Source: Nitrospirota bacterium (lineage in GTDB: Bacteria; Nitrospirota; JACRHJ01). From it: a stretch of DNA of 64,000 nt. Position 1 is the first letter of the stretch. Each line of letters starts with the position of its first letter. The stretch lies in NCBI GenBank assembly GCA_963698885.1, contig CAVOSJ010000006.1, forward strand, positions 325,186 through 389,185, in the 5' to 3' direction. Below, piece after piece: positions 11,465 to 59,679 of this stretch. The notes below the pieces were generated by a model that was given only the letters and a program-made list of their open reading frames with translations, did not search any database and had not been told where the DNA came from. A program made the translations under genes and the position numbers.

Positions 11465-11569
11465 GTTACTTTCTTTTCGGGTGAAAAGAAAGTAACACAA
11501 AGAAAAGCCGGGGTTTAAACCCCCCGCTTTCTTTTGTGTTACTTTTCTTTCCCGTGAAAGAAAAGTAAC
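11465..11569. repeat. mosaic palindromic intergenic repeat, copy 1 (R hairpin - GC-centred hairpin linker - R hairpin)
   Basis: GTTACTTTCTTTTC-GGGT-GAAAAGAAAGTAAC ... AAAGAAAAGCCGGGGTTTAAACCCCCCGCTTTCTTT ... GTTACTTTTCTTTC-CCGT-GAAAGAAAAGTAAC. Confidence 0.9.
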
Positions 11570-11574
11570 GGTTT

Positions 11575-11901
11575 TTATTCAAAAGAGCAGATATATTCCG
11601 TCACGCCCCCGTCCACGGCTATCTCGAAAAACGAGTCGCCGGGCACGTCGAAAAAAGTCCCCTCTTTATAAGCCGTCCAGGTCTGCTCGCCTTTCTGCTT
11701 CACGCGGCAGGAGCCTGCGATAATCTCCATCTTCTCCGGCGCGCCCGTGTTGAACTTGAACTCGCCCGGATATATAAGACCAAGGGTCTTTTTCGTCCCG
11801 TCCTTGAAAAGCACGGTGTGGCTGACCACCTTCCCGTCGAAATAAACGTTGGCCTTGCATACAACACTCACGTCGTCGAACTGCTTCGGCTGTTCCGGCA
11901 T
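11575..11901 (-). CDS. ppnP: pyrimidine/purine nucleoside phosphorylase PpnP (cupin-like, YaiE family)
   Basis: NVYFDGKVVS..., PGEFKFNTGAPEKMEIIAG..., ...TEYICSF align block-for-block with E. coli PpnP as I recall it; start set at internal ATG 11901. Confidence 0.8.
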   Translation of the reverse strand: MPEQPKQFDDVSVVCKANVYFDGKVVSHTVLFKDGTKKTLGLIYPGEFKFNTGAPEKMEIIAGSCRVKQKGEQTWTAYKEGTFFDVPGDSFFEIAVDGGVTEYICSFE

Positions 11902-12414
11902 AACCCCCACCCCCCAGTCCATTAAAAGTGAATTAATCCCGGTAATTGCCCTACTGTATAGCATGGAGCCGGCGATAATGTCAAACGCGCTGTATGCAGG
12001 CCATTAAATATGCCTAAATGGTACTTGAGAAAACGCCGCGATTATGGTAAACATCAGCAATGAATAAAAGGCTTGCCTTTATCATCTTCCCGGTCTGTTT
12101 TTTCATAGCTTTTTTGGGGGCGGACCTCCCAAAATTCGGGACCAGTCGTCACGCGAAACCGATCCCGATATTAAAGAGCCTTGTAGAATCTTCGGCGGAT
12201 TACTCCAAAGGCGCTTTAATAGATATCGGACCTTGCAAACACTATTACGATAATATCCCGCATAAGGAATATCCGCCTTTTTATCCGGAAGTTTCAAGGT
12301 TTAATCCCCGTATAGCGGTTTACTATATCGTAGCCAGGCCCCCTCCGACGATTTCCTGAAAACATTAATACGCAGTCGAAAAAAAGTTTACGGAATAACA
12401 AGGAGGTTCAACCC

Positions 12415-12975
12415 ATGGGGTCGTTTAAAAGGGGTTTGCTTATTTTCATCGCGGCGCTATTTATCTGCGCGGGTTTTTACGGCTGCGCGAAAAAACAGCT
12501 TAATACAGGCGGGGGCGAATTGAAAACCCAGCAGCCGCAAGCAGCCAAACAGACGCCGCCGGAAAACACGTCCAAAACCGAGGCGAAGGAAGTGCCTCCC
12601 GGCCCTAAGGAACAGCCTGCGCCGGTTGAAACGGCGCGGCAGGAGAAGGCGCTTAAGGATGTGCATTTCGCTTACGACAGCTACGACATTACGTCGGCGG
12701 AGGGCAATATACTGGAGGCCGACGCCAATTGGATAAAATCCAATAGGCCCGGGCTGGTCCTTATCGAGGGGAACTGCGACGAGCGTGGCACGGTAGAGTA
12801 TAACCTGGCTCTTGGTGAACGAAGGGCCGACGCCGCGGAAAAATATCTCGTGTCACTGGGTATTAAGGAAGCAAGGTTAAAGACCATCAGCTACGGGAAA
12901 AGCAAGCCCGTGGACGACGGGCACACGGAAGACGCCTGGGCGAAGAACAGACGCGACCATTTCGTCGTGCAGTAA
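12415..12975 (+). CDS. pal: peptidoglycan-associated lipoprotein (OmpA-C domain)
   Basis: signal peptide with lipobox ...AGFYGC; OmpA-like C-terminal domain (NCDERGTVEYNLALGERRA, GKSKP, NRRDHFV); AAGGAGG RBS. Confidence 0.85.
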   Translation: MGSFKRGLLIFIAALFICAGFYGCAKKQLNTGGGELKTQQPQAAKQTPPENTSKTEAKEVPPGPKEQPAPVETARQEKALKDVHFAYDSYDITSAEGNILEADANWIKSNRPGLVLIEGNCDERGTVEYNLALGERRADAAEKYLVSLGIKEARLKTISYGKSKPVDDGHTEDAWAKNRRDHFVVQ

Positions 12976-13071
12976 ATTCACCTGGATTCCAGCTGCAGGA
13001 ATGACACGGGGCGTATCATCTTCTCGAAACGCGGCATAGTCCAGTTAGGCGTGACCGACTACACTTAAGCG

Positions 13072-13099
13072 CTGGGGGGCGGAATATTCCGCCTCCCAG
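13072..13099. terminator. GC-rich hairpin (12-bp stem, 4-nt loop) between convergent pal and a minus-strand ORF; possible bidirectional terminator
   Basis: CTGGGGGGCGGA-ATAT-TCCGCCTCCCAG; no strong U-tract, so intrinsic termination is uncertain. Confidence 0.4.
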
Positions 13100-13106
13100 C
13101 CTTGGT

Positions 13107-13527: not shown

Positions 13528-13588
13528 GCATCACTTAAATCTGGACGCACTGCAGTCCGCTTTAGCAATAAGTTTAGGAGTGCATTTG

Positions 13589-16467: not shown

Positions 16468-16562
16468 GTTACTTTTCTTTCGAGAAAGAAAAGTAACCAA
16501 AAGAAAGCTGGACTTAAAACCGGTTTTCTTTGGTTACTTTCTTTTTTCCAAAAGAAAGTAAC
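16468..16562. repeat. mosaic palindromic intergenic repeat, copy 2
   Basis: GTTACTTTTCTTTC-GA-GAAAGAAAAGTAAC ... GTTACTTTCTTTTTTCCAAAAGAAAGTAAC. Confidence 0.9.
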
Positions 16563-17619: not shown

Positions 17620-17717
17620 GTTACCTTTTTAGTAAAAAGGTAACGCCAAAAACTTTTAAACTTTTTTGGCCCCGCTTTCTTTTGTGTTACTTTTCTTTCC
17701 CGCGAAAGAAAAGTGAC
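17620..17717. repeat. mosaic palindromic intergenic repeat, copy 3 (P hairpin - linker - R hairpin)
   Basis: GTTACCTTTTTAGTAAAAAGGTAAC GCCAAAAACTTTT ... GTTACTTTTCTTTC-CCGC-GAAAGAAAAGTGAC. Confidence 0.9.
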
Positions 17718-17732: not shown

Positions 17733-18611
17733 ATGTTTCGCTACCTTGCCAGGAACAAGGGCATCCTGCTCTTGTTCCTCATAATCCTTTCAAGCTTCCT
17801 GATTATTACCTCGCAGGTAAGAAAGCCCCGCAATGCCTCTTTGCCTGAACGGGCAGTAACGATGCTCCTATCCCCGTTCGCCATGGGGACGCAGGCGGTA
17901 AAAAACAAGGTTACAGGCGCCTGGGACGGTTACGCGGGCCTCGTATCCGCGAGGGACGAGAACCTTCAGCTTAAAGACGCGAACAGGCGGTTCTACCTGG
18001 AGAACCTCCGCCTCAGTGAAGCCCTCCTTCGAAATGCCCGGATGGCCGAGCTTTCGTCCGTGGCGAAAGATTTCGGGTACCCGGCCGTCCCCGCGCACGT
18101 CATCGGGCGGGACGCCTCATCGTGGTTCAATACCGCCTGGATAGACGCGGGCGAGAAAGACGGCCTGGCCAGGAACATGCCCGCCGCCGCCCATACGGGG
18201 GTCGTGGGACATATCTCCAAAGTCTCGGGCGGGACGTCCCGCCTCACGCTTCTCACCGACCCGGCAAGCGCCGTGTCCTGCATAACCCAGCGCACACGCG
18301 AGCCCGGCATACTTGTCGGGGAGGGCACCGAACTGTGCCGTTTCCAGTACGTGGGCAAACAGGCCGACATTGCCGTGGGCGACCTGCTCATCACCTCGGG
18401 GTTGGACGGGATATTCCCGGCGGGTCTGCCCGTGGGGCGGGTGGCGCAGGTGTCGAAGACGGGCCAGGGATACTTCGAGGAAATCTACGTGCGCCCTATA
18501 GCTGACATAAAGCGGATAGAGGAAGTTTCCATCGTCCGTTACCAGGCGAAGCCCCTCCCTGCGGGTGAGCAGTCAAAGCCGAGGGAAAAAGGTAACGCCA
18601 AAAACTTTTAA
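17733..18611 (+). CDS. mreC: rod shape-determining protein MreC
   Basis: 292 aa, N-terminal TM, coiled coil, beta-rich C-terminal domain; position between mreB and mreD; last 8 codons and the stop lie inside repeat copy 4. Confidence 0.85.
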   Translation: MFRYLARNKGILLLFLIILSSFLIITSQVRKPRNASLPERAVTMLLSPFAMGTQAVKNKVTGAWDGYAGLVSARDENLQLKDANRRFYLENLRLSEALLRNARMAELSSVAKDFGYPAVPAHVIGRDASSWFNTAWIDAGEKDGLARNMPAAAHTGVVGHISKVSGGTSRLTLLTDPASAVSCITQRTREPGILVGEGTELCRFQYVGKQADIAVGDLLITSGLDGIFPAGLPVGRVAQVSKTGQGYFEEIYVRPIADIKRIEEVSIVRYQAKPLPAGEQSKPREKGNAKNF

Positions 18612-18671
18612 GACAAGTTTAACTTGTCCCGTTTTCTTTTGCTGCTTTTCTTTTCCGTAAAAGAAAAGCAG
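18586..18671. repeat. mosaic palindromic intergenic repeat, copy 4 (degenerate; overlaps mreC 3' end)
   Basis: AAAAAGGTAACGCCAAAAACTTTTAA ... GCTGCTTTTCTTTTCCGTAAAAGAAAAGCAG. Confidence 0.8.
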
Positions 18672-22431: not shown

Positions 22432-22528
22432 CTTTACTTTCTTTTCGAGAAAAGAAAGTAACAAAGAAAAGCTGGACTGAAAGTCTCGCTTTCTTTTGCT
22501 ACTTTTCTTTCACGGGAAAGAAAAGTAG
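22432..22528. repeat. mosaic palindromic intergenic repeat, copy 5
   Basis: CTTTACTTTCTTTTC-GA-GAAAAGAAAGTAAC ... GCTACTTTTCTTTC-ACGG-GAAAGAAAAGTAG. Confidence 0.9.
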
Positions 22529-22535
22529 GACTTAA

Positions 22536-25043
22536 ATGTTTAAAGATAAAATCCTGCGAATCCTCCCCCTTGTCACCAAGCCCACGCGCTACATCGGCGC
22601 GGAGGTCAACGCCGTAGTGAAGGACCCGGATTCGGTCTCGCTTACGTGGGCGCTCTGTTTCCCGGACGCATACGAAGTGGGCATGTCCCACCTGGGCTTG
22701 AAGGTCCTCTACGAGATACTGAACGCGCGTGCCGATATCTGGGCCCAGCGCGTGTTCGCGCCGTGGCCGGACATGGAGGAAAAACTCAGGGAGCATAACC
22801 TGCCGCTCTACGCCCTTGAAGGTTTCACGCCGCTTGGCGAAATGGACATCATCGCCTTCACGCTCCAGTACGAGCTGTCCTACACCAATATCCTGAACAT
22901 GCTGGATTTATCCGGACTCCCGGTATATTCGAAAGACAGAGACGAAACGCATCCGCTCGTGATTGCGGGCGGCCCCTGCGCCTTAAACCCGGAGCCGCTG
23001 GCTGAGTTCATAGACGTATTCGACATCGGGGATTCCGAGGAGTCGGTGCTTGAGATATCCGACATAGTGCTGGACTTCAAAAGGCGCGGCGTGAAGGATA
23101 AAAAAGCCCTGCTCCTCGCTCTTTCGAAAGTCGAAGGCGTTTACGTCCCGGCGCATTTCGAAGTTTTGAAAGACCAGGGCGGCAAAATAGAGAAGATAAA
23201 AAACGTGGCCGGCGGCCCGGACAGGGTCAGAAGGCGCCTGATAAAAGACCTGGACAAAGCGGCGTTCCCCGTGCGCCCGCCGGTGCCGTACATGGCCGCC
23301 GTGCATAACCGCATCACGCTTGAGATCTCGCGCGGATGCCCGCGCGGATGCCGGTTCTGCCAGGCCGGGTATATCTACAGGCCGATGCGCGAGAGGGGTC
23401 TTCCCCGCCTTATGGAACTGGCGGAGGCCGCCCTTTCATCTACCGGCTGCGACGAGCTGTCCCTTTCCTCGCTCTCGGCCGGGGACCACAGCTCCCTCCT
23501 CCCGCTGATGACGAACCTTATGGACGTCTATAGCCAGAGGAAGGTCTCGATATCGCTTCCGTCGTTAAGGGTGGGTACGCTCACGCCGGAGATGTGTAGC
23601 GAGATAAGGCGCGTCAGGAAGACCGGGTTCACCATCGCGCCCGAGGCGGGCACCCAACGCTTAAGGGACGTGATAAACAAAAATATCTCAGAGGACGCTC
23701 TGACCGAGACCGCGGCGACGGTATTTTCATCCGGCTGGGACCTGATAAAGCTCTACTTCATGGTGGGCCTGCCGACAGAGACCGACGACGACCTGCGCGG
23801 CATAATAGACCTGTCCCGGAAGGTATTGAACGCAGGTAAAGGCGGGGGCGGCAGGCGGAAGGGCGTGAATGTCGGCGTCAGCGCATTCGTGCCCAAGCCC
23901 CATACGCCGTTTGAGCGGCTGGGGCAGATACCGATATCCGAGATGCGCAGAAGGAAAGACATTTTAAAGAGCGCACTGGGCAGGAAACCGTTCGCGATGA
24001 AGACCGGCTTCGCCGAGACGAGCGCGCTTGAATCCGCATTCGCCAGGGGCGGCCGGGAAACAGGCCAGGCGCTTTATAACGCCTGGAAGGCCGGCGCGCG
24101 TTTCGACGGCTGGACGGAGTACTTCAACTGGCAGACGTGGCTGGACGCGTTCAAGGATGCCGGCATGGACGTGGAGGATGAGGCGGCGCGCGAGTTCACT
24201 CCGGACGAGATACTGCCCTGGGGCCACATCGACTGCGGCGTGACCGACAAATTTTTCAAAAGTGAGCTGGAAAAAGCCCTGCGCGGCGAGACCAGCCGGG
24301 ACTGCCTGGACAAGTGCACGGCGTGCGGCCTTGAGTGCAAAAAAGAGGAGAGCGATATAACGCCCCAGCCGCACGTCAGCCCGTCCGCGCCGCCGGGGGC
24401 GGGTTATGGCAATAGGACGGAGTGTGAGAAGCAGCCAATGGCTAAACGGCCAATGGCCGTGGCTGCGCCCGCGAGGATACGCATCTCGTACACGAAGCTC
24501 ATGCCGCTGGCCATGCTCTCGCATACGGAGATGATGACGCTTTTTTTCCGGGCAATCTCGCGCGCGGGGCTGCCCGTGGCTTTCTCGGAAGGTTTTAACC
24601 CGCACCCGAAGCTTTCGTTTGGTCCCGCGCTCGGTGTCGGGATAGAATCGGAGGCGGAAATCCTTGACATAGAACTGAGTTATGCTATAGACTTGATGAT
24701 GGCCGCGAAGGCCCTGAACATGGCGCTGCCGTCAGGCGTGAGGGTTTCAGAAGCCCGTTATATCTCGCCGAAAGAGGCCCCCGCGGGGGTCGGCCTTACC
24801 TCTTACGAGTACGAAATGGAAGTCCCCGGGGGAGCGGACGCCGAGGGTGCTATCTCCGGGTTCCTTGCAAAAGCAAAGCGCGGTGATTACCCGCGTCTCC
24901 GAGAAGGGGGACAAGGAAATAGATATACGCCCGATGGTGCGCAGCCTGGAGGCAGCTCGGGACGGGCGGACGGTTATTTTTACGCTGACGGCAGTCGATG
25001 GCAAGGGCGCAAAACCCTTCGAGGCGGCCCAGGCTATATTTAA
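22536..25043 (+). CDS. B12-binding radical SAM protein fused to a DUF2344-type C-terminal domain
   Basis: 835 aa; N-terminal B12-binding-like region, radical SAM core with CPRGCRFC cluster motif, C-terminal DUF2344-like block (RISYTKLMPLAMLSHTEMMTLFFRAISRAGLPVAFSEGFNPHPK); family often neighbours rodA/RNase G genes. Confidence 0.8.
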   Translation: MFKDKILRILPLVTKPTRYIGAEVNAVVKDPDSVSLTWALCFPDAYEVGMSHLGLKVLYEILNARADIWAQRVFAPWPDMEEKLREHNLPLYALEGFTPLGEMDIIAFTLQYELSYTNILNMLDLSGLPVYSKDRDETHPLVIAGGPCALNPEPLAEFIDVFDIGDSEESVLEISDIVLDFKRRGVKDKKALLLALSKVEGVYVPAHFEVLKDQGGKIEKIKNVAGGPDRVRRRLIKDLDKAAFPVRPPVPYMAAVHNRITLEISRGCPRGCRFCQAGYIYRPMRERGLPRLMELAEAALSSTGCDELSLSSLSAGDHSSLLPLMTNLMDVYSQRKVSISLPSLRVGTLTPEMCSEIRRVRKTGFTIAPEAGTQRLRDVINKNISEDALTETAATVFSSGWDLIKLYFMVGLPTETDDDLRGIIDLSRKVLNAGKGGGGRRKGVNVGVSAFVPKPHTPFERLGQIPISEMRRRKDILKSALGRKPFAMKTGFAETSALESAFARGGRETGQALYNAWKAGARFDGWTEYFNWQTWLDAFKDAGMDVEDEAAREFTPDEILPWGHIDCGVTDKFFKSELEKALRGETSRDCLDKCTACGLECKKEESDITPQPHVSPSAPPGAGYGNRTECEKQPMAKRPMAVAAPARIRISYTKLMPLAMLSHTEMMTLFFRAISRAGLPVAFSEGFNPHPKLSFGPALGVGIESEAEILDIELSYAIDLMMAAKALNMALPSGVRVSEARYISPKEAPAGVGLTSYEYEMEVPGGADAEGAISGFLAKAKRGDYPRLREGGQGNRYTPDGAQPGGSSGRADGYFYADGSRWQGRKTLRGGPGYI

Positions 25044-25105: not shown

Positions 25106-25202
25106 TTTACTTTCTTTTCGGGTGAAAAGAAAGTAACAAAGAAAAGCCGGAGTTAAAAGCCCAGCTTTCTTTTGCTACTTTTCTTTCTCGAAAGAAAAGT
25201 AG
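25106..25202. repeat. mosaic palindromic intergenic repeat, copy 6
   Basis: TTTACTTTCTTTTC-GGGT-GAAAAGAAAGTAAC ... GCTACTTTTCTTTC-TC-GAAAGAAAAGTAG. Confidence 0.9.
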
Positions 25203-25212
25203 AAAGACTTAA

Positions 25213-26743
25213 ATGCCAACTGAGATAATAGTAAGCGCGAGCCACCAGGAGACACGGGTGGCGCTGTTAGAGAACAAGCTTGTGACGGAGATATTCATCG
25301 AACGGGCGAAGGACCGCGGCAACACCGGCAACGTCTACAAAGGCCGCGTGGTGAAGGTCCTGCCGGGGATGCAGGCCGCGTTCGTGGATATCGGCCTTAG
25401 AGAAATCCGCCTTCCTTTACGTCGCCGACGTCTATAACTCCGTGGAAGAGTACGCCCACATGATGGCGGAGGACATAACGGCGGAAGAAGAGGAGATCGA
25501 GATAGAGGAAGAGGGCCGGCCCAGACGCAGGCGGCCGTCGTCCATGACCATAGAAGAGCTGCTCCAGGAAGGGCAGGAGATAATCGTGCAGGTGGCCAAG
25601 GAGCCTATCGGCACGAAGGGCGCGCGGGTAACGAGCTATGTCACCCTGCCCGGGCGCTACGCCGTCTATATGCCCACCGTGGACCATATCGGCATCTCCC
25701 GCCGGATCGAGAGCGAGGCGGAGAGAAAGCGCCTGAAGGACATAGTGATGTCGCTTAAGAAGCCCGGCGCGGGCTATATCGTCCGCACGGTCTCGGAGGG
25801 CCAGGACGATGCGGAGCTGAAGCGCGATATGGACTTCCTGGAGCTTCTCTGGCAGAGGATACTCAAAAAGAACGAAAAACTCTCCGCGCCGTCAGTGCTC
25901 CATTACGACCTGGACCTGGTCTTCCGCACCATACGCGACCTGTTCACCCTGGACGTCGAGAAGCTGGTGATAGACAGCGCCTCCGAATACCAGAGGGTGA
26001 AGGAGTTCGCCGACGCCTACCTCCCGCAGCTTAGCGAAAAGGTGGAGCTGTACGACAAGGACGAGCCGATATTCGACGCCTACGACGTGGAGATAGAGAT
26101 ATCGCGCGCGCTGGGCCGCAAGGTCTGGCTTAAATCCGGCGGCTATATCGTCATCGACCAGTCCGAGGCCCTGACGGCAATCGACGTGAACACCGGACGC
26201 TACGTCGGGAAACGGAACCTGGAGGACACGATCCTCAAGACAAACCTCGAAGCCGTGAGAGAGATCGCGTATCAGCTGAGGCTTCGGAACATCGGCGGCA
26301 TCATCATCCTGGACTTAATCGACATGGAGAAGGAGGAGAACCGCCGCAAGGTCTATACGTCGCTGCAGGAGTACCTCTCCCACGACAAGGCCAAGACGAA
26401 CATCTACCACCTCTCGGACCTGGGGCTCATCGAGATGACCCGCAAAAGGACGCGCGAGAGCCTGGGCAGAAGCCTTTGCGACCCGTGCCCCTACTGCGAG
26501 GGCCGTGGCTTCATCAAGAGCAGCGTCACCGTCTGCTACGAGATATTCCGCGAGATACGCCGCATCGCCCACTCCGCGAAAGAGAAGAAGATAATGGTCT
26601 CCGTGAACCCGGAGGTGGCGGACCTGCTCTTCGACGAGGAGCGCCAGGGCGTCGATGACCTGGAGATGGAGTTCAAGAAGAAGCTCATAATCAAGGGCGA
26701 CACGACGCTCCACCAGGAGCAGTACGATATCGTGATGGTATAG
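25213..26743 (+). CDS. rng: ribonuclease G/E-family endoribonuclease; one apparent +1 indel near 25397
   Basis: ORF 25213..25437 (S1 domain start, ...AAFVDIGL) continues in the next frame as EKSAFLYVADV... (ORF 25442..26743, catalytic domain). Confidence 0.85.
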
Positions 26744-26746: not shown

Positions 26747-26842
26747 GTACTTTTCTTTCGCGAAAGAAAAGTACCAAAAGAAAGCCGGGCAGTTAAGTCC
26801 GGCTTTTCTTTGTTACTTTCTTTTCACCCGAAAAGAAAGTAA
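26747..26842. repeat. mosaic palindromic intergenic repeat, copy 7
   Basis: GTACTTTTCTTTC-GC-GAAAGAAAAGTAC ... GTTACTTTCTTTTC-ACCC-GAAAAGAAAGTAAG. Confidence 0.9.
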
Positions 26843-30469: not shown

Positions 30470-30644
30470 GTCAGCCCGTTTTGACCTCTGAACGTCCGCT
30501 ATTTAAATTTAACAGGTTTTTTCGGAATACGCATGGGCGGGGATGTTGCATAACGCGCGCGGGCGTATGAGAAAGAGAGGGGCGGTCAGATGCTTTGGTG
30601 CGGGTTTTTATTCCCGATTCTGAAACCGGCGTTAATGATGAGCT

Positions 30645-31134
30645 TTATTTGTCAGTAGCAGCTTCAAGTTGGTTTATTAAAAGTTCCCAATTATTACGAC
30701 TCATTTCATCTTCATGCATTTTTTGTAAAATTATCTCACGTCCGAATTCAAATTTTTCGCCTACGTCATTTTTTACGTAGTTTTGATTTGCTGCCGCAGC
30801 ATCTAATAGTTTAAAATCCATTTCAATTTCTTCAGGCTTCCGGAAGTTATTTTTTTTAACATGGATTAATAACTTATGAAATGCAGTTGTTGTAAATTTT
30901 TTCTTGCTGTCCCAGGATGTTAATAAAGAGATACCGAGTTTCATAAAAATAATCATCCATTAAAACTATCTCCTGTGTAAGAGCATCGAAATCAGCTCTT
31001 TTCATTTTTTTTCCAGTACGGGTATTATAGCTGTTAATTGCATCTTTAAAGTCATTAATATCATGTTCATTCAATTTATCCACCCGTGTCTTTGAGAATA
31101 CTTTAGATAATTTATCCATTTCTTCTGTATTCAA
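30645..31134 (-). CDS. hypothetical protein encoded in the low-GC island (about 163 aa); frame change at a homopolymer near 30895-30920
   Basis: ORFs 30874..31134 and 30645..30956 overlap in different frames across an A/T homopolymer; no family recognised. Confidence 0.5.
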
Positions 31135-31225
31135 CTTAGGATAATCGCAGAATCTTCTTTTGAAGAGGAATTCACAGGAGAGGAACTTTTATCGGAAAAA
31201 ATATAATAAGGCCAAACAACCCCTT

Positions 31226-31378
31226 TTAAAGTGGAAACAACCTCACCCAAAAAAACCATTTTACGAAGCCATTATCTCTTGCATATTGCCAATTAAATCG
31301 AGGTACAAACAGGGAGCAAGCGGCTATATAGAAAAAGAAAATAACGACAATTAATTTTCCGATTGGGTTGTTTGGCAT
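31226..31378 (-). CDS. candidate small hydrophobic peptide (50 aa: MPNNPIGKLIVVIFFFYIAACSLFVPRFNWQYARDNGFVKWFFWVRLFPL)
   Basis: below the ORF-track length cutoff; one predicted TM helix; start codon lies inside the right arm of a perfect 12-bp inverted repeat (31365-31376) whose partner (31212-31223) follows the stop. Confidence 0.25.
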   Translation of the reverse strand: MPNNPIGKLIVVIFFFYIAACSLFVPRFNWQYARDNGFVKWFFWVRLFPL

Positions 31379-31469
31379 AAGTCAAAACCTGTTTTATATT
31401 TGCTAACCCGCTAATGCCAAATATACCACTTCTTAAAAAAATGAAATTGGAGACAGGAATTCGGAACAG

Positions 31470-31800
31470 GTCCCTTATCTTTTCCGTTCTTAATAACCCC
31501 TCTTGCTTAATTGGGCTAAGCCATCATCGGTTCACATTTATTCAAAAAAAATAAAAAAATCGACAAATTTTTTACGGTATCGAATTCATGACATCTCCAC
31601 GCTCGGCACAATGCATTTTAGGGGGTCAGGGGCGGGTTTTTGAGACGTGAGTTTTTGGGGAAATGCAGAGATTTTCCCAGATTTTAAATAGGGTTACGCC
31701 ACTATACTGCGGCAATTCCGAAATCGGGTTTTGCATTTCGCAAGTCATTGAAAAGTAAGGAATATTTTTAGCGAAAAAATGCGAAAAAACGCCGGGATTT
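31470..31800 (-). repeat. ~300 bp non-coding module A, homologous to 49141-49435 (opposite strand)
   Basis: by-eye alignment of A against the reverse complement of B: shared blocks CGGTATCGAATTCATG, GGGGGTCAGGG, CCGATGATGGCTT(A/G)GCC, ATAAATGTG, CATTGAAAA(G/T)TAA(G/A)G(A/G); roughly 70 percent identity. Confidence 0.75.
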
Positions 31801-34480: not shown

Positions 34481-34944
34481 TTTGGCACCTTACAGATTCT
34501 TCTTTGCCAACCGTTTCGAGTTAATTTCCGATGTGATCACTGTCATTATGATTGCTCCAAGGAACGCCGTGTGCGATTTTGTCCAATGGTATAAATTTTA
34601 TTCAGGCCACTCTCATCGCGATATTTTCTGCAACAATAGTCTCTTGCAAATATCAAAATCCATAAACCTCCGTTCACGTGACCATATATCATCTCCTTAT
34701 TTTTAAGATATGAGGGTAATTCTTTGACACCCTCTTTGCCTTAATATCTTATCATTAATATTCCAAGCAGAAGAAACTTCGCAAAATATGCTACCTTATC
34801 CTTTAGCGTCATGGCCACGAAATAGGATAATACTCTCTTCTATCCAGCTTGCTTCTCAACTCGATACTGAGGGCATTTATAACAACATGCGGCCATTCGC
34901 CAAGTAATTCATTACGATTGTCTTCATGTATATCCAAATGCTCC

Positions 34945-37492: not shown

Positions 37493-37506
37493 GGAACCTC
37501 CAGACC

Positions 37507-37604
37507 GTTACCTTTTTGGAAAAAGGTAACGCCAAAAACTTTTGGACTGTTTTAAGCCCGGCTTTCTTTTGTGTTACTTTTCTTTCACCCGAAAGAAAAG
37601 TAAC
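37507..37604. repeat. mosaic palindromic intergenic repeat, copy 9 (between large and small dehydratase subunits)
   Basis: GTTACCTTTTTGGAAAAAGGTAAC GCCAAAAACTTTT ... GTTACTTTTCTTTC-ACCC-GAAAGAAAAGTAAC. Confidence 0.9.
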
Positions 37605-37607
37605 GGT

Positions 37608-46125: not shown

Positions 46126-46218
46126 GTTACCTTTTTGGGAAAAAGGTAACACCAAAAACTTTTAAACTAAAAACAGTCCGGCTTTCTTTTGGTACTTTTC
46201 TTTCATCCAGAAAGTAAC
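46126..46218. repeat. mosaic palindromic intergenic repeat, copy 10
   Basis: GTTACCTTTTTGGGAAAAAGGTAAC ACCAAAAACTTTT ... GGTACTTTTCTTTCATCCAGAAAGTAAC. Confidence 0.9.
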
Positions 46219-48229: not shown

Positions 48230-48522
48230 CCTTCGGTCTCCTCCTCAGCCTGTATCTTTACCTGGTCGCCGGGGTGGATCATCTCCTTGAACTCGGGCAT
48301 GACCTCCGCCGCGAGCGCGTAGTAGCTGCGCTGGTTCTTGATGAACCTGTCGGAGGTTTCGTCGTAGACCTTGTCGAAGAGGGTCGAGCCGCATGTCGGG
48401 CAGGTGATAACCGCATGGCCCCTCTCGTCAAAGCAGAGAAAAGACATCACGTGCGCCCCGCAGAGCCTGCACGGTGTTATAATGAGTTCCGGGCATGTAG
48501 TCATAACTATAAAGTCTATCAC
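48226..48522 (-). CDS. small Cys-rich (zinc-ribbon-like) protein, start overlapping the cytochrome gene (ATGA)
   Basis: CxxC...CxxC pairs (CRLCGAH...CPTCGSTL); 4-nt overlap with cytochrome start suggests translational coupling; start position uncertain. Confidence 0.4.
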   Translation of the reverse strand: MIDFIVMTTCPELIITPCRLCGAHVMSFLCFDERGHAVITCPTCGSTLFDKVYDETSDRFIKNQRSYYALAAEVMPEFKEMIHPGDQVKIQAEEETEG

Positions 48523-48680
48523 GAAAAAAAATCAGGTTCAACGTCAAATAAGCTTTATAGCCATATAAAAATGTGGTATTTGAAGGGGCCTGCATGGGCG
48601 GATCTACCGCAACGGGAAAATTGTCGTCACAGTGCATAAAATTTATTGACTGCGTATTTAGATTATGCGTAAATAATCAA

Positions 48681-48926
48681 ATGGCGCCAAAACAAAAAAA
48701 TCAGCGAAAATTGCCCCCGGGTTTGAGAGCGGCAGTTGAGACGAGTTTTATCGTTTTTCTCTTTTATTCCAACCTTCTGATGGGAGAATTTACTCATACC
48801 AACGGACAAGGAAAGAGTTTGTTTTTTGCTGTTCAGGATATTTTTACGGTTGCTAATTTTGTAATTGCCATCATCACCGCGCTGATCGGTTATATAGTTG
48901 TTGAATTTCTTAGAAAGAAATTATAA
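48681..48926 (+). CDS. small membrane protein, hypothetical (AT-rich)
   Basis: ORF from ATG 48681 (MAPKQKNQRK...), two hydrophobic segments; no family recognised. Confidence 0.3.
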   Translation: MAPKQKNQRKLPPGLRAAVETSFIVFLFYSNLLMGEFTHTNGQGKSLFFAVQDIFTVANFVIAIITALIGYIVVEFLRKKL

Positions 48927-49020
48927 TGACCCATAGTTTTGAAATGCGTTTCCAGCACGAAACATGGGATATGTACTAAGCACCCCCGCCACACCTAACT
49001 CGAATCTTTCACTTTAATAC

Positions 49021-49096
49021 CGCCGCTTAATCTGCTAAACTTTCCTCTATATGAAATCCGCAATCTTAATCAGCCCCGGCGTGATGTATAAACCGC
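49021..49096 (+). repeat. left direct repeat: duplicated 5' end (upstream region + first 12 codons) of the Zn-ADH gene
   Basis: shares an identical 37-nt core TATGAAATCCGCAATCTTAATCAGCCCCGGCGTGATG with 51292-51328 plus similar flanks; encodes MKSAILISPGVM then diverges to a stop. Confidence 0.85.
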
Positions 49097-49140
49097 TGTT
49101 TATTTTTCGCGCGGAACGTTGAAAATCAGTTCAGGCCGCG

Positions 49141-49435
49141 CGAAAATACCTTTAATTTTCAATAACTTCTAAAAGTGCAAAGCGTGATTTCCATGCCGCC
49201 GAAATTGGCCGAAAAGTGGACGTAACCATATGTAAAACAAGGGTAAAAATACCGCCGCCCCATTAAAAACATATGCCTCCAAAACCCATCCCTGACCCCC
49301 CAAAATCGCCGCATTTACCCTGACAACCCCCCATGAATTCGATACCGCATGAAATTCGTTGATTTTTCCATTTATATATGGATAAATGTGGGCCGATGAT
49401 GGCTTGGCCGATTAAGGAGGAATAGCTATTAAAAG
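49141..49435 (+). repeat. ~300 bp non-coding module B, homologous to 31470-31800 (opposite strand); contains TTGATT-17 nt-ATAAAT promoter-like hexamers and the REase RBS
   Basis: by-eye alignment to the reverse complement of module A (see module A entry). Confidence 0.75.
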
Positions 49436-49449
49436 CAGGGAGGAAAGTT

Positions 49450-50052
49450 TTGCAAATAACTCGCAACAAACCCGATGACAGCAAATTCAATCAAGAAGCT
49501 TTATTGCCATACGAACTGAGGCTGAACGACTTCGAAATGGCAATGCAAGATGTATACGACTTCTTCTATGATGTGAATTTATTTTTAACGAAGAAGGGGC
49601 TCTTAAGACTGGATGACATGCTCCGGCCCGCAATTATGTCCGGTGTGTTATCGGATATGCTTACCGCGAGTCTTGCTAAACATTCGCGGGTACTTAAGGA
49701 AAATAAATTTTTTAATGGTCATCCAGACCTCGTGGTACAGGGTATATATCCGGATAACGCAGTCAAGGCCGGGACGGAGGGTGTTGAAATAAAAAGTACG
49801 CGCAAGGCGGGTGGCGCTGTTGACACTCATGGCGCGAGAGATCAGTGGATGTGCGTATTCGTCTATGATATTGACTGCGTGACCGAACCTGCCGGAGACA
49901 GAACGCCAATGGCGTTCACGGAAATATATCTCGGCAAGGTAACAGTTGAAGATTTCAGGCGCAATCTCCGTGGCGAACTCGGCACCAGGACAGCCACCCT
50001 TCATCGTGAAGGGATTATAAAACTTCGCCAGAACTGGATATATCGGATTTAG
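49450..50052 (+). CDS. putative type II restriction endonuclease (PD-(D/E)xK-like)
   Basis: 200 aa; GHPDLVV ... EGVEIKSTRK fits PD...ExK spacing; convergent with and 3'-overlapping the adjacent DNA methyltransferase; TTG start after GGAGG. Confidence 0.55.
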   Translation: MQITRNKPDDSKFNQEALLPYELRLNDFEMAMQDVYDFFYDVNLFLTKKGLLRLDDMLRPAIMSGVLSDMLTASLAKHSRVLKENKFFNGHPDLVVQGIYPDNAVKAGTEGVEIKSTRKAGGAVDTHGARDQWMCVFVYDIDCVTEPAGDRTPMAFTEIYLGKVTVEDFRRNLRGELGTRTATLHREGIIKLRQNWIYRI

Positions 50053-51211
50053 CGTTTGATTTGAAATCCGTAAGTTTAGGAATTGCAGTACGCGCAATAT
50101 CGAAATAGTGACGGTCTTTTTCGATGCCGATACTTTGATAACCTATAGCTTCTGCGGCCGCAAGAGTTGACCCGGCCCCGGCAAACGGGTCAAGTATTAC
50201 TCCCTCCCCGAGCGGGAGGACGCCACGTATAACTTGCCGCAGAAATGCCTGTGGTTTAAGGCTTGGATGTGGTGCAAGGGCCCGCTCGTTTTTTTGGGTA
50301 GGCGCGGACTGTATCACGTCCCCGAAAGGCTTGTCCGCAGAAGGGCGGCGAAATCCGCCTGTTTTCCATTTTCTAAGATTATCCTGAGCTCTTCCTTCCA
50401 AAGGTTTTCGGAATAATATCCAAGGCTCCCACATTGAACGCGGCATTACGCTTATTTCCTCAAATTCAGTGTGAGCATGTTTCGGACGATCTCCCCCACG
50501 CATAGTCATTACTAGACGAATAATCTCGCCGCGTCTTTCCAGGCCGGCATCTGCCAAAGCATTAGATAGGATATATGAAAGAAGGGGGTTGGAAGCCACC
50601 AAGACGTTTGCGCCGGGTACGAGTTTCGGTAGCAGAAGCCTCGCCCAAACGAAGAAAAAGGCGCTCAATCGCTCACGCTGGTCATCCGTAAGAGTTGTAA
50701 ATCTAGGAAGCGGAGACCTCGTATGGCCATCAAAGGAAGGCGGAATACGCCAGACCCCCCCTTTTCGGTTACGCAATTTTAATTGTTGGTCAGGCGTATA
50801 TTCATGAAGTCCGTAAGGGGGGTCTGTTACCACCGCATGTATACTCTGATCCTGCCTCTTCTCAATCCAGTCAAAACAGTCTCCATGGTATAGAGTAGTT
50901 CTGCCTAATACAAATGGCTGTTCCATTTCGGAGTGATATGAAAAATCGCGATGCATTTCTCCGGCATGCTGTTGCCGGACGCGGTATACGCCTCGACCTT
51001 CTTTGATAAAAAGCGAGGGAGTATTAAGACGGAGATAAGACCGGACGGATGAAGCAGGGGTCGGCCCCATTATCTTGTTTATTCTTTCTTCAATTTGCAT
51101 AATGGAAAGCGCTTCGGAAGTTAGCGACAGCACTTGTAAGATGGCATCGCGCACGCGTCCGGGTGCATATCTTTTTTCGGTTGATTGCATGAATAAAATA
51201 TAAACGTCCAA
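50015..51211 (-). CDS. DNA methyltransferase, beta-class amino-methyltransferase (N6-adenine or N4-cytosine)
   Basis: 398 aa; motif IV DPPY (TDPPYG) precedes motif I FAGAGST. Confidence 0.85.
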   Translation of the reverse strand: MDVYILFMQSTEKRYAPGRVRDAILQVLSLTSEALSIMQIEERINKIMGPTPASSVRSYLRLNTPSLFIKEGRGVYRVRQQHAGEMHRDFSYHSEMEQPFVLGRTTLYHGDCFDWIEKRQDQSIHAVVTDPPYGLHEYTPDQQLKLRNRKGGVWRIPPSFDGHTRSPLPRFTTLTDDQRERLSAFFFVWARLLLPKLVPGANVLVASNPLLSYILSNALADAGLERRGEIIRLVMTMRGGDRPKHAHTEFEEISVMPRSMWEPWILFRKPLEGRAQDNLRKWKTGGFRRPSADKPFGDVIQSAPTQKNERALAPHPSLKPQAFLRQVIRGVLPLGEGVILDPFAGAGSTLAAAEAIGYQSIGIEKDRHYFDIARTAIPKLTDFKSNAKSDISSSGEVL

Positions 51212-52322: not shown

Positions 52323-52399
52323 GTTACCTTTTTTGTAAAAAGGTAACGCCAAAAACTTTTGGACGTTTTTGGCTCCACCTTTTTCCGTAAAAAGGTGGA
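52323..52399. repeat. mosaic palindromic intergenic repeat, copy 11 (P - linker - P-variant)
   Basis: GTTACCTTTTTTGTAAAAAGGTAAC GCCAAAAACTTTT ... CCACCTTTTTCCGTAAAAAGGTGG. Confidence 0.85.
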
Positions 52400-56165: not shown

Positions 56166-56227
56166 TAGCCTTATTCCCTTGACTTAACCCCTTAAATTTT
56201 ATAAAATTTCAATCTTGTTACCAGTTT

Positions 56228-56264
56228 AAAAGTTTTTGGCGTTACCTTTTTCCAAAAAGGTAAC
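56228..56264. repeat. mosaic palindromic intergenic repeat, copy 12 (linker + P hairpin only)
   Basis: AAAAGTTTTTGGC GTTACCTTTTTCCAAAAAGGTAAC. Confidence 0.85.
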
Positions 56265-57530: not shown

Positions 57531-57534
57531 ACCT

Positions 57535-57629
57535 GTTACCTTTTTGGAAAAAGGTAACGCCAAAAACTTTTAGGGTTAAACACCCCAGCTTTCTTTTGTG
57601 TTACTTTTCTTTCCCGAAAGAAAAGTAAC
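57535..57629. repeat. mosaic palindromic intergenic repeat, copy 13
   Basis: GTTACCTTTTTGGAAAAAGGTAAC GCCAAAAACTTTT ... GTTACTTTTCTTTC-CC-GAAAGAAAAGTAAC. Confidence 0.9.
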
Positions 57630-57646
57630 GACTTTCCATTTTACCC

Positions 57647-57675
57647 TTGACAGCCGTCTATCCTTTTTTTATACT
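57647..57675 (+). promoter_or_regulatory. putative sigma70-type promoter TTGACA-17 nt-TATACT upstream of a ~240-nt GC-rich leader and the porin gene
   Basis: consensus -35, 17-nt spacer, near-consensus -10. Confidence 0.4.
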
Positions 57676-57915
57676 CGCAAAAATTTAATATTCTTCCGAA
57701 GCCGGACCGCCCTACAGTCTTTTCGCAGGGGCCAGGGGTCCCGGCCGACAGGGTCGCATCCGAAAGGGTGCGGTCTCCCATAGAAGCCGGTTACCGGTTT
57801 TGGAAAGGAGGGCAAGCTCGCGGCAAGGCACCTCTTTATTCAAAGAAGGCGCCTTTTTTTATTTCGAACTGTTTTCATTATTTTTTAGCAGGCAATCCGA
57901 AAGGGGAACTCCGTT

Positions 57916-59589
57916 ATGAGGCTGATATCGGTTTTAACGTCTTCATTATTAATCCTGCTCTTATCCGTGAGCGCCGCTTTTGCCGACGGACAGAAGGTCA
58001 CAAGCGACCTGCTGGACGTGCTTAAGGCAAAGGGCGTGTTAGACGACGCGTCTTACGACAGCCTGAAGAAAAAAGAGGCCGCCTCCCCGACCCCGGCGGC
58101 GAGTACACTACAACTTCTCGATGTCCTTAGGGCGAAGGGCGTGCTGGGCGAGGAGGACTACAACAGGCTGTCCAGGGAGGCCGCGCCCACAGCCGTCCCG
58201 GCAGTCGCAACCAACCCCGCACCCGCGGCCGTGCCCGTGGCGGAAACCGTAACCGCGCCCGAGCCAGCTACAGCGCCCGCGCCGACTGCCGCGGCATCGC
58301 CCGGAGGGCCGGAAAGGCCGATAGACGGTACCCTGACAAAGGTTGAAGATAGTTTCGCGAGGGTGACGGGGGATATTGTAAGGCTGAAAATCGGCGGCTA
58401 CTTACAGGCCGGCTATTTAAACGACGACGCAGGCTTCTCTTACGGCGCGCCGCCTAATAACTTGTTCAGCCCGACCTCCGGCAATCAGTTCTTCGTCAGG
58501 CGGGCAAGGCTCATTTTCGATTTCGGCGTGGGCCCGAAGGTGGGCGCGCGGGTCTCGATTGAGCCAGCGGTCGACCTCAACACGGCAAGCACGACCAGCG
58601 GCGGCAGGAGCATCCTCCGGGACGCCTATGGCTGGACCGACTACATCCCTTATACAAGAATAACCCTGGGCCAGTTCAAGACCCCGTTCGGACTGGAGGG
58701 CGTGGAGTCGTTATCGGACAACCCCACGATTAACCGCTCCATGGTCACGAACCTTGTGCACTACCCGCTCCTCAGGGACATAGGCGTCATGGCCGCCTGG
58801 AACTTCAAAACGGATGTCTCTGGCCTGCCGCTTGGCGCGCAATGGGCGGTGGCGCTCGTCAACGGCACGGGATACAACCTCCCGGACGACAACGACCAGA
58901 AAGACCTCGTGTTCAGAGGGACAGTCAATCCGCTTGTGGAAGGCCTTAACATCGGAGGTTCTCTCTATGGGGGCAAGACGCACGTAACGCCGGCTGCGGG
59001 CGCCGCCTTCAATAAATACCACGACAGCTGGGCCGCCGAGGCCGAGTATGTCCCGCCCTTCCTGAAAGGCTTGAAGCTCAGGGGCGAATATCTCTGGAAC
59101 AGGCAGTACTATACCAAATATTACAGCTACGCGAGCGTTACAGGCACGGCCAGCAACACCCCGCCCGCTACCGCGTCTACAGTGGGGACCCTCCCCAATA
59201 ACCCCAGCACTGCAAACGCCGCCCGCACGGTCCATACCGCCGGATGGTATGCGCTGGCGGTTTACAGGGTGGACGGACTGCAGGGCATCGGGAGCTACCT
59301 TAACGGCCTTGAGCCCCTTGTACGCTACGACACCATGAACGAGGACGAGGACGGGACTCCCTGGGTATTTACCAGCGGCTCGGGCGCTGCAACGAAGACA
59401 CTCACAGTCAATTCGCACACCAGATACCGTACAACGGTGGGTCTAAACTACTACTTCAATAATTACGCGCGGCTGATGCTGGACTACGAGATGATACATG
59501 CGGACGCGGGCCTCAGGAGGGCTTCAATAGAGTCCATAGACCTTATATCGCACCGCCTCTTCACGACGCTCTTGCAGGTGAAGTTTTAA
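57916..59589 (+). CDS. outer-membrane beta-barrel porin (possibly phosphate-selective OprO/P-like)
   Basis: signal peptide ...VSAAFA; Ala/Pro-rich linker; beta-rich body ending in C-terminal Phe (...LQVKF). Confidence 0.5.
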   Translation: MRLISVLTSSLLILLLSVSAAFADGQKVTSDLLDVLKAKGVLDDASYDSLKKKEAASPTPAASTLQLLDVLRAKGVLGEEDYNRLSREAAPTAVPAVATNPAPAAVPVAETVTAPEPATAPAPTAAASPGGPERPIDGTLTKVEDSFARVTGDIVRLKIGGYLQAGYLNDDAGFSYGAPPNNLFSPTSGNQFFVRRARLIFDFGVGPKVGARVSIEPAVDLNTASTTSGGRSILRDAYGWTDYIPYTRITLGQFKTPFGLEGVESLSDNPTINRSMVTNLVHYPLLRDIGVMAAWNFKTDVSGLPLGAQWAVALVNGTGYNLPDDNDQKDLVFRGTVNPLVEGLNIGGSLYGGKTHVTPAAGAAFNKYHDSWAAEAEYVPPFLKGLKLRGEYLWNRQYYTKYYSYASVTGTASNTPPATASTVGTLPNNPSTANAARTVHTAGWYALAVYRVDGLQGIGSYLNGLEPLVRYDTMNEDEDGTPWVFTSGSGAATKTLTVNSHTRYRTTVGLNYYFNNYARLMLDYEMIHADAGLRRASIESIDLISHRLFTTLLQVKF

Positions 59590-59595
59590 AGAGCT

Positions 59596-59679
59596 GTTAC
59601 CTTTTTGAAAAAAGGTAACGCCAAAAACTTTTAGTCCGGCTTTCTTTTGGTACTTTTCTTTCACCTGAAAGAAAAGTAC
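59596..59679. repeat. mosaic palindromic intergenic repeat, copy 14
   Basis: GTTACCTTTTTGAAAAAAGGTAAC GCCAAAAACTTTT ... GGTACTTTTCTTTC-ACCT-GAAAGAAAAGTAC. Confidence 0.9.

Follow-up and report, generated by a model that had tools for sequence, protein, structure and literature searches.

Mosaic palindromic repeats with triplex-type sequence motifs at gene junctions in an uncultured Nitrospirota lineage

The DNA considered here is a stretch of 64,000 nucleotides (nt) from a Nitrospirota bacterium (assembly GCA_963698885.1, contig CAVOSJ010000006.1, positions 325,186 to 389,185), hereafter the window, in which genes such as mreB, mreC, mreD, rodA and tatC, and those encoding RNase E/G, E1 alpha, E1 beta and the two subunits of an aconitase-family enzyme, are repeatedly separated by a short palindromic element. 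Against a window G+C content of about 57%, the repeats stand out as A/T-rich, and they are strictly polypyrimidine/polypurine. An earlier note on this DNA had listed 14 repeat sites assembled from two hairpins (R and P), a linker and a GC-centred fold-back linker, and a module scan recovers all 14 at the same coordinates and with the same modules, finding no additional multi-module copies in the window. Comparison with loci of relatives (labelled L plus a number; about 0.62 Mb of sequence including the window) shows that the repeat family is real and non-artefactual, that its copies turn over quickly, and that most of its modules obey a mirror rule; on balance, we lean towards viewing it as a lineage-specific relative in kind of the mobile-looking REP-type repeats.

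Matches to hairpin R (GTTACTTTTCTTTC) with two or fewer mismatches number 26 in the window, compared with 0.40 expected by chance (and a maximum of 3 in 100 shuffles), and matches to hairpin P (GTTACCTTTTT) with no more than one mismatch number 23, compared with 0.82 expected from shuffles. Hairpin R exists as proposed, but is actually two hairpin types, X (CTTTCTTTTC) and Y (CTTTTCTTTC), which together with P (CCTTTTT) provide the three main arms of the family. The complete unit is about 95–105 nt long and consists of two inverted modules around a variable centre, each module being a perfect 11–15-bp pyrimidine-loop-purine hairpin plus a mirror strand lying 4–7 nt to its inside. Because the 5′ arms of the terminal hairpins are all pyrimidine and the 3′ arms all purine, this composition also holds on the opposite strand. 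The hairpin foot is a conserved 5 bp (GTTAC/GTAAC), and alignment of 149 element ends, displayed as a logo, places the left boundary between AAAACC and GTTAC and the right one between GTAAC and GGTTTT, with AAAACCTTT as a variant end; the ends AAAACCGTTAC and GTAACGGTTTT constitute terminal inverted repeats. The element ends first proposed were thus at the right sites but fell about 6 nt short of the full unit, and the fold-back linker, which is indeed present, is better described as two mirror strands surrounding a variable apex. Two arrangements predominate. Type A has the order X hairpin, AAAGAAAAG, GC-rich apex, CTTTCTTTT, Y hairpin, and type B the order P hairpin, GCCAAAAACTTTT, short apex, CTTTCTTTT, Y hairpin; there are in addition P-only, compact and single-hairpin short forms. 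The 14 copies, and one site that is empty in the window, are as follows.

11465–11569: type A, with X hairpin, purine mirror strand, GC-rich apex hairpin, pyrimidine mirror strand and Y hairpin; between Ppnp (stop 5 nt away, its TAA overlapping GGTTTTTA) and the start of a Cys/Met-pyridoxal phosphate (PLP) gene; apex and T-tract terminator-like on both strands in a consensus scan.
16468–16562: type A, inverted (Y hairpin first, X hairpin last); between the stop of an RDD-family gene and the mreB start.
17620–17717: type B, with P hairpin, linker GCCAAAAACTTTT, mirror strand CTTTCTTTT and Y hairpin; 3 nt past the mreB stop and 15 nt ahead of the mreC start.
18586–18671: type B, left-truncated (5′ arm of P missing), with self-mirror hairpin CTTTTCTTTT and mirror strand TTTTCTTTT; mreC (17733–18611) ends inside it and mreD starts 10 nt after it.
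22432–22528: type A; 3 nt past the rodA stop and 7 nt ahead of a radical-SAM gene start.
25106–25202: type A; 62 nt downstream of the stop of a radical-SAM/DUF2344 gene.
26747–26842: type A, inverted; 3 nt past the RNase E/G stop (TAG ACC) and 20 nt ahead of a DHH gene start.
32806–32822 (- strand): empty site; the stop of an E2 acyltransferase gene overlaps the start of the next gene (ATGA), and the closely related L060 has a 118-nt element exactly here.
35933–36027: type B, inverted, running from Y hairpin through linker to P hairpin; 4 nt from the stop of E1 alpha, with the start of E1 beta on its other side.
37507–37604: type B; 3 nt from the stop of the gene for the aconitase-family large subunit, with the start of the small-subunit gene on its other side.
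46126–46218: type B, 3′ arm of the Y hairpin truncated; between the stop of a short-chain dehydrogenase/reductase gene (15 nt) and a methyltransferase start (4 nt).
52323–52399: P-only, its P hairpin accompanied by a perfectly paired hairpin in the centre (GCCAAAAAC...GTTTTTGGC) and by another, P-like one (TCCACCTTTTT/AAAAAGGTGGA); a DUF58 gene starts 9 nt after it, the flank AAAGGTTTT giving a Shine-Dalgarno-like AAAGG.
56217–56264 (56228 onward in the earlier note): short form, with a GTTACC remnant, the linker in reverse and the P hairpin; upstream of tatA/B, in a divergent region.
57535–57629: type B; 4 nt past the tatC stop.
59596–59679: compact type B with almost no apex; 6 nt past the stop of a Porin_O_P gene.

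The most distinctive property of the modules is the relationship between each X or Y hairpin and the strand that lies 4–7 nt inside its core, which is neither a copy nor a complement of the adjacent arm but its mirror image, with CTTTCTTTT standing before Y hairpins and CTTTTCTTT before X hairpins. We examined this in 75 unique X/Y-type modules, choosing the inner strand by pyrimidine content alone so as to avoid circularity. The mirror fit is perfect at 9 of 9 positions in 59 modules and holds at 8 of 9 in a further 13, and when inner strands are shuffled among modules the mean number of perfect fits is 21.6, with a maximum of 31 in 1000 shuffles. Rare variants follow suit. The variant pairs TCTTCTTTC with CTTTCTTCT (L015), TTTCTCTTT with AAAGAGAAA (L069) and CTTTCTTTTT with TTTTTCTTT (L083 and L017) have each changed in all three strands in the mirror sense, as has TTTTCTTTT, which goes with itself, at window position 18642. 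Hairpin type and inner strand also switch jointly at five orthologous sites; at 37507, for instance, the window has Xc with Y and the orthologs in L060 and L035 have Yc with X. Replication and recombination do not make mirror copies, and the relation therefore looks constrained; the mirror-sense covariation appears to be unusually direct comparative evidence for a constraint acting on a relationship among three strands.

Two simpler rules for the inner strand can be set aside. A direct-repeat rule fits only those sequences that are their own mirror images. Alternative Watson-Crick pairing, of arm 2 with strand 4 and of strand 3 with arm 5, does not work as a general rule, type B elements having no partner arm, and the variants in L015, L069 and L083 hold the mirror relation while weakening those pairings. 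The pyrimidine strand runs parallel to the purine arm with T over A and C over G, as a pyrimidine-motif triple helix requires, and the purine version is found on the other strand. The modules have the Y-R-RH / H-Y-R block structure of the ITxF/PIT definition (stems of 6–15 nt with at most one mismatch, loops of 1–6 nt), with hairpin loops of 2–4 nt and a spacer between third strand and core that measures 4–6 nt in 42 of the 75 modules, 7 nt in another 30, and includes five bases that can pair as the foot. They thus carry an A/T-rich version of the sequence signature of intrastrand triplexes, and are potential triplex formers.

We note two other repeats in the genomes of these relatives. G/C-rich motifs resembling BoxC/TMECO (for example CCCTCTCCC..GGGAGAGGG..GGGGAGAGGG) are present at L017:4323, L074:2150, L076:7938/9970/10004, L083:3003 and L070:600-655, so that the lineage has both G/C-rich and A/T-rich repeats of the triplex type. 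A second repeat of about 36 nt (GAGATGATTTACCTGTCCAGAGCGATAGCGAAGACA) is lodged at the exact boundary of loop and 3′ arm in the Y hairpins of six copies (L015, L028, L038:5319-5354, L052:2010-2049, L053 and L066); it is also found free-standing or within another hairpin family (L009, L022:6320-6400 in tandem, L032 and L039), and it is absent from the window. Its location resembles the targeting of REP loops by IS1397-like elements, or a footprint.

Pfam assignments bear out the gene context given originally, the junctions identified being those of mreB/mreC, mreC/mreD, rodA/radical-SAM, RNase G/DHH, E1 alpha/E1 beta and the aconitase-family large and small subunits. The description of the copies as abutting stop codons also holds, the upstream stop being within 15 nt at 11 of the 14 window sites and mostly 3–6 nt away; the exceptions are the copies at 25106 (62 nt), 52323 (76 nt) and 56228 (in a divergent promoter region). 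The next start codon is within 22 nt at 10 of the 14 sites, mostly at 7–22 nt. Among 113 unique copies in the window and relatives, 68 are at co-directional junctions, 8 at convergent and 6 at divergent ones, and for the other 31 one flank is over 150 nt away from the nearest called gene; here too the distances from stop codon to element cluster at a few nucleotides, the copies occupying the short spacer between a stop codon and the ribosome-binding site of the next gene. There is no bias in orientation relative to transcription (29 type B copies in the same direction and 25 in the opposite one), nor do the single-module copies, which were tested with an RNA-level triplex in mind, show a preference (7 versus 4).

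This placement is accompanied by a strong skew in stop codon usage. Genes ending beside an element use TAA in 56 of 67 cases (84%), compared with 221 of 458 (48%) elsewhere (Fisher p = 3e-8), and the usual arrangement is TAA(A)ACC-GTTAC, in which the stop codon overlaps the terminal A-run of the element. Its A-rich ends yield TAA on whichever strand a gene reads in. At the copy at 18586–18671 the coding contribution is larger, the last eight codons of mreC (EKGNAKNF) and its TAA being read from the 3′ arm of P and the linker. On the exit side, a variant end reading ...AAAGGTTTT-ATG, as read from the sequence at 35933 and 52323, gives a Shine-Dalgarno-like AAAGG. The copies at 22432 and 25106 share a right flank, GACTTAAATG (22529–22538 and 25203–25215), that includes the downstream start codon, and the repeated unit may sometimes carry the start context of the next gene with it.

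Orthologous sites can be compared because the window and its relatives are closely related: alignment with one metagenome-assembled genome (MAG) gives about 91–94% identity with gaps included and 95–97.5% within ungapped blocks, and alignment with another gives about 88% overall and about 91% within blocks. Among genomes that are 88–97% identical, copies are present or absent without duplication of a target, inverted in place, or altered by the swapping of a single module. Two sites show clean gains. In L037 a 103-nt copy splits a TGA stop codon that is intact in L052, having entered after its T and before its GA; the AA of the element restores a TAA stop, the downstream GAGG is kept, and nothing is duplicated. 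In L060 the 118-nt copy occupies the point where the window genes overlap (ATGA), and the upstream gene there ends in a new TAG. Neither of these two filled and empty pairs (L037/L052 and L060/window) shows a target-site duplication.

Resident copies are also rearranged. A whole element is inverted between identical flanks in L082 relative to L013 and L003, and the short form at 56217, which L014 shares with the window, corresponds in L008 to a complete, oppositely oriented element. Module swaps or deletions are seen at window sites 35933 and 37507 and between L003 and L013, L018 and L051, L048 and L061, L055 and L059, and L080 and L007, with the last three pairs showing losses the size of a hairpin; short forms come from the loss of one hairpin at orthologous sites. 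At 35933, L060 has an X module instead, and in L035 the P half is replaced by unrelated DNA. Gains and losses, flips and exchanges of modules thus proceed faster than the divergence of the flanks (about 5–12%). A composite transposon bounded by two facing half-elements in L002 was considered and rejected, the 350 nt between them being nuoK.

The stems themselves are conservative. In 27 orthologous pairs of copies, not all of them independent, 470 stem pairs are unchanged, 15 have changed on both sides and still pair, 3 have changed on both sides and do not, and 19 have changed on one side only, so that 15 of 37 changed pairs remain paired; per nucleotide, the stems change less than non-stem positions (about 5% versus 12%, the latter from 227 of 1855).

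The family has a narrow distribution. A 19-mer spanning the P hairpin and linker matches 63 stretches in a collection of species-representative genomes, nearly all of them in three Nitrospirota MAGs from one soil survey, and a degenerate hairpin pattern including the AAACC flank recovers 21 further contigs from five Joint Genome Institute (JGI) metagenome samples, some of which are close relatives and others only about 78% identical. Carriers include both Illumina and long-read assemblies. The family is a population within one Nitrospirota clade. The earlier note had likened the mosaics to REP/BIME elements, and named two outcomes that would speak against that reading, confinement of the modules to the window and identical copies at every orthologous site; the reading holds, as the modules are present in three Nitrospirota MAG species and five metagenome samples and the copies of relatives differ in presence, orientation and module content. 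Of its three candidate roles (terminators or 3′-end stabilisers, protein-binding sites, and a spreading non-autonomous element) only the last has gained direct support.

A few occurrences lie outside the clade as binned. The 500-kb contig CAVZCJ010000016.1 (L016 and L042), from the same sample and binned as 'uncultured Alphaproteobacteria', has the repeat family and about 92% identity to loci of the Nitrospirota bin59, and is probably misbinned, judging by this similarity. A lone short-form copy (P hairpin plus linker) is present at L010:6299-6340 in an Omnitrophota MAG, and a degenerate one at L012:6310-6349 in an Anaerolineaceae MAG; binning error, horizontal transfer or convergence could account for them. 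Matches of the 19-mer in records from Bacteroidetes, Nostoc and Pseudobdellovibrionaceae have no hairpin and are due to chance. Scans of viral contigs with the Y hairpin and the P-linker 19-mer gave 0 matches, and no phage link was found. Rfam at its gathering threshold matches none of the repeats in the window, and a tRNA search of the window found none. Literature searches with the motif strings returned only unrelated primer matches, and the sole paper found that joins Nitrospirota and REP merely lists genomes; the family is undescribed in the searchable literature.

We think it somewhat better than an even bet, from the pattern in the sequences, that these are lineage-specific, non-autonomous palindromic repeats of the REPIN/BIME type, built of triplex-motif modules and possibly also affecting mRNA. 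Copies would spread as single-stranded DNA through an unlinked enzyme, HUH/RAYT-like (RAYT, REP-associated tyrosine transposase) or otherwise, that reads a hairpin together with its neighbouring strand. Ectopic gene conversion among copies would keep the stems perfect and generate the mosaics, and the TAA-bearing ends, along with the ...AAAGGTTTT variant, would be the reason that insertions within operons are tolerated. Once inserted, the hairpins would probably act on mRNA as REPs do, as barriers to decay, weak attenuators or obstacles to termination, a side effect and not the reason for the family's existence.

Several observations weigh against this interpretation. In a Pfam scan of the 76 called window open reading frames (ORFs) of at least 60 aa, no ORF has a transposase, HUH or recombinase domain, in keeping with the earlier statement that the window has no RAYT-like gene; outside the low-GC islands described below, the ORFs are housekeeping genes. 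A tblastn screen of the 0.62 Mb, for which an IS200 TnpA and an E. coli RAYT sequence served as queries, returned nothing beyond weak, spurious matches inside dnaX, pgi and rarA-like genes, and is a weak test that covers a small part of each genome. There are only two clean filled/empty pairs, and one of the filled sites, in L060, has 12 extra bases only loosely similar to the flank. Gene conversion alone could explain the module swaps without transposition. Several copies, such as those at 37507 and 57535, persist across about 9–12% divergence with changes in both arms that keep the stem paired, which also fits selection for a function; the copy at 57535 is kept at the orthologous site in L008 and L014, where both arms of the hairpin foot have changed (GTTAC/GTAAC versus GGTACC/GGTAC). 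Among the modules, L077:1393 breaks the mirror rule, and the P hairpin and linker mirror each other over the T5/A5 part only, their G/C positions fitting no standard triad code. Finally, by a geometric estimate, the 5-bp foot would compete sterically with a full triplex and would have to open at least in part.

Of the other explanations, the one that survives best, which we nonetheless consider rather improbable, is that the repeats serve in the first place a function in mRNA, for which they were selected at the junctions within operons, where their hairpins would block 3′ exonucleases, attenuate transcription or impede the terminating ribosome. They would then set the relative expression of neighbouring cistrons, such as mreB versus mreC and mreD or E1 alpha versus E1 beta, and mobility would merely distribute the signals. 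The placement of copies 3–6 nt after stop codons and 7–22 nt before the next start, mostly at co-directional junctions, is what such a role would call for; in E. coli, REPs stabilise upstream mRNA, and those within about 15 nt of a stop codon reduce translation. RNA folds of the elements computed with ViennaRNA, which models Watson-Crick and GU pairs only, are very stable (z-scores of -3.7 to -9.2 in six folds), and in one of the six (37497–37615, + strand) the flanking ACC and GGU close a multi-branch structure. Self-complementary hairpins in inverted modules would give the same RNA architecture in either orientation, fitting the lack of bias, and the persistence of copies with stems kept paired by changes in both arms is likewise in its favor. 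A terminator consensus scan flags some type A centres, in which an A-tract and a T-tract border a GC hairpin in the manner of a bidirectional intrinsic terminator; it also flags some of the terminal hairpins, after which comes GGTTTT. Yet the terminal stems are A/T-rich, with only 3–4 GC pairs and T-runs of 3–5 nt after GG, the majority of copies are located within operons and not at their ends, and strong terminators within the mre or dehydrogenase operons would be harmful. Nor does selection for an mRNA signal sit easily with a relative that gained a copy between translationally coupled, ATGA-overlapping genes, another that gained one inside a stop codon, a site that holds a full, half or inverted copy in near-identical genomes, or copies in divergent promoter regions (that at 56228, and 6 of the 113 overall); and it leaves the mirror rule unexplained.

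Less probable again is that the elements are maintained through non-B structures at the DNA level, intrastrand triplex, H-DNA or cruciform, that would form transiently in single-stranded or supercoiled DNA, and that they persist through that effect and not by transposition. They might serve as replication pause sites, hotspots of recombination or instability, or binding sites for nucleoid proteins or topoisomerases, as has been proposed for BoxC/TMECO and BIMEs. The mirror rule and its mirror-sense covariation are what defines a triplex-forming motif at the level of sequence, these genomes also contain G/C-rich motifs of a BoxC-like kind, and phased A/T tracts in the linker could bend DNA; the high local rate of small deletions, inversions and replacements at occupied sites is also reminiscent of the TMECO loci of Holder et al. 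What such structures do not explain is the presence of around a hundred near-identical copies at unrelated junctions, with defined ends and clean insertions. In addition, an A/T-rich triplex of 9 triads, two of them C+·G-C, would be marginal at neutral pH, Holder et al. (2015, PMC4666352) detected no TMECO triplex either in vivo or in double-stranded DNA, and no protein partner is known. By analogy with REPs, this explanation and the preceding one can both coexist with a REPIN/BIME-type origin.

A bolder proposal, to which we give little credence, would have the mirror strand and hairpin selected as a real pyrimidine-motif triple helix. This could form in the transcript, as a bacterial counterpart of the MALAT1/ENE (expression and nuclear retention element) 3′ end that guards operon mRNA segments and is delivered to gene ends by a mobile element, or in single-stranded DNA, as the recognition structure for a mobilising enzyme; in either version, the inversion of the two modules would ensure that the element has a 3′ module able to form a triplex in both directions of reading. 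Lastly, although several split genes in the window suggest homopolymer errors and the X and Y types differ in T-run lengths only, an assembly or sequencing artefact or a chance low-complexity pattern is refuted by independent assemblies, as X, Y and P modules of the same kind, in which a change in the arms is accompanied by one in the mirror strand, turn up in a MAG assembled from Illumina data (isolate MFD06091_ilm_asm_bin59) as well as in further MAGs and in JGI metagenomes obtained independently, orthologous copies align base for base, and the motif counts are about 30–60 fold above shuffle expectation.

Several other features of the window deserve mention. The split genes, each represented by two adjacent ORFs, are a DegT aminotransferase (5345–6467), a Cys/Met PLP enzyme (10292–11447) and a class I tRNA synthetase (31838–32813); these are either frameshift sequencing errors, which are plausible for a long-read assembly, or pseudogenes. 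Two islands of low GC content (0.44–0.47, compared with 0.57 elsewhere) lie at 30500–31800 and 48300–51200. They were considered as a source of a transposase and hold a DNA methylase instead: the second contains an N6/N4 DNA methyltransferase gene (50015–51211, - strand) amid ORFs without a Pfam match, and may have been acquired, as a restriction-modification island or one of another type. A 465-nt A/T-rich segment (34481–34944) that separates the genes for the E2 acyltransferase and E1 beta looks non-coding and is represented by just 24 nt in L060 and L035. The only Rfam match in the window is a molybdenum cofactor (Moco)/tungsten riboswitch (RF01055, 44.2 bits) at 57682–57826 (+ strand), upstream of the Porin_O_P gene (57916–59589), which is followed by genes for a PBP_like_2 binding protein and an ABC permease and has one repeat copy on each side.

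Interspersed palindromic repeats are common, but few families have an origin and a function that are understood, and nearly all of these belong to Proteobacteria. What is new here is a repeat family of an uncultured Nitrospirota lineage that couples a mobile-looking repeat with signs, from sequence comparison, of a three-strand constraint and with a design that fits stop codons. We found no other A/T-rich repeat family with intrastrand triplex motifs described in the literature searched; TMECO, the family characterised in a 2015 survey, is G/C-rich (PMC4666352). Ends that restore a TAA stop, along with the Shine-Dalgarno-like AAAGG of one variant, may explain how a selfish element can occupy about 20% of the gene junctions in a compact region while leaving operons unbroken. 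The insertion, inversion and module-swap polymorphisms among MAGs offer a tractable natural system for asking whether triplex motifs drive instability, serve a transposase or act on RNA. Such repeats can also break short-read assemblies and confound binning, and they are usable as strain-typing markers.

A number of known systems share some of these properties. With the 3′-end triple helices of MALAT1, PAN and transposon RNAs, each formed by an ENE and an A-rich tract, there is a likeness in the 3′ module, which if transcribed would present a U-rich strand, a short linker, a second U-rich strand, a loop and an A-rich strand, with 9 potential major-groove triples (7 U·A-U and 2 C+·G-C); the MALAT1 triple helix has 9 U·A-U and 1 C+·G-C. 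The Nitrospirota module differs in being a simple fold-back and not an internal loop that clamps a 3′ tail, its host is bacterial, and its single-module copies have no orientation preference. IS200/IS605-derived elements and miniature inverted-repeat transposable elements (MITEs), including Correia/CREE, ERIC, RUP and the pneumococcal BOX, are also small and non-autonomous, with subterminal hairpins or terminal inverted repeats, and are found in both orientations close to genes; some are modular, like BOX, and IS200/IS605 elements make no target duplication. Here, by contrast, there is no identified parent insertion sequence and, unlike Correia and most MITEs, no TA or other duplication, and in comparison with IS200/IS605 the insertion target is defined only as being at or inside a stop codon. 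The TTAC of the foot resembles what we take to be the target tetranucleotide of IS608, which is a lead only.

REP, BIME and REPIN families are similar in being short extragenic palindromes of many copies (14 in 64 kb, and 113 unique copies in the sequence compared), in having as their mobile-looking unit two inverted palindromes and a spacer of about 100 nt, of which singlets resemble decay products, and in forming mosaic clusters after gene ends, including those inside operons, as vertically inherited populations in one lineage. REPINs are associated with RAYTs (Bertels & Rainey 2011, PMC3116915; PMC3337134). The Nitrospirota family departs from them in lacking a GTAG-type 5′ motif at its hairpins, which have AAAACC before the GTTAC/GTAAC foot, and no RAYT was found in the window or the 0.62 Mb compared, by what was a weak screen; its units are perfect A/T-rich pyrimidine/purine hairpins with a mirror strand, its terminal A-runs supply stop codons, and its host belongs to the Nitrospirota.

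The closest known analogue, by these structural comparisons, is BoxC/PIT/TMECO of E. coli. PIT elements are attributed to Hoyne et al. 2000 as cited in Holder et al. (PMC4666352), and BoxC/TMECO elements are described there as intergenic and without orientation bias, with inverted pairs that are always of two different subtypes and with small-deletion hotspots between strains (PMC4666352). Like them, the Nitrospirota repeats are intergenic pyrimidine-loop-purine hairpins with a third strand mirroring the purine arm (class II on one strand, a pyrimidine motif on the other), show no orientation bias and form inverted pairs of two subtypes (A plus B in E. coli, X plus Y here); the loops are variable and the stems conserved, small deletions or rearrangements distinguish close strains, and no associated mobile-element gene is known. 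The differences are nevertheless considerable. The A/T-rich window copies (CTTTTCTTTC and similar) do not match the TMECO consensus CCCTCNCCC N3-6 GGGNGAGGG N3 GGGNGAGGG, having potential triads of T·A-T or A·A-T with two G positions instead of CCCTCNCCC/GGGNGAGGG. They have an extra 5-bp foot, defined ends (AAAACC/GGTTTT) and a second, non-mirror module (P hairpin plus linker), and they lie a few nucleotides past stop codons, whereas TMECO has no preferred distance. They are also far denser locally, at 14 in 64 kb compared with 23 in an E. coli genome, and, again in contrast to TMECO, they display clean insertion polymorphisms.

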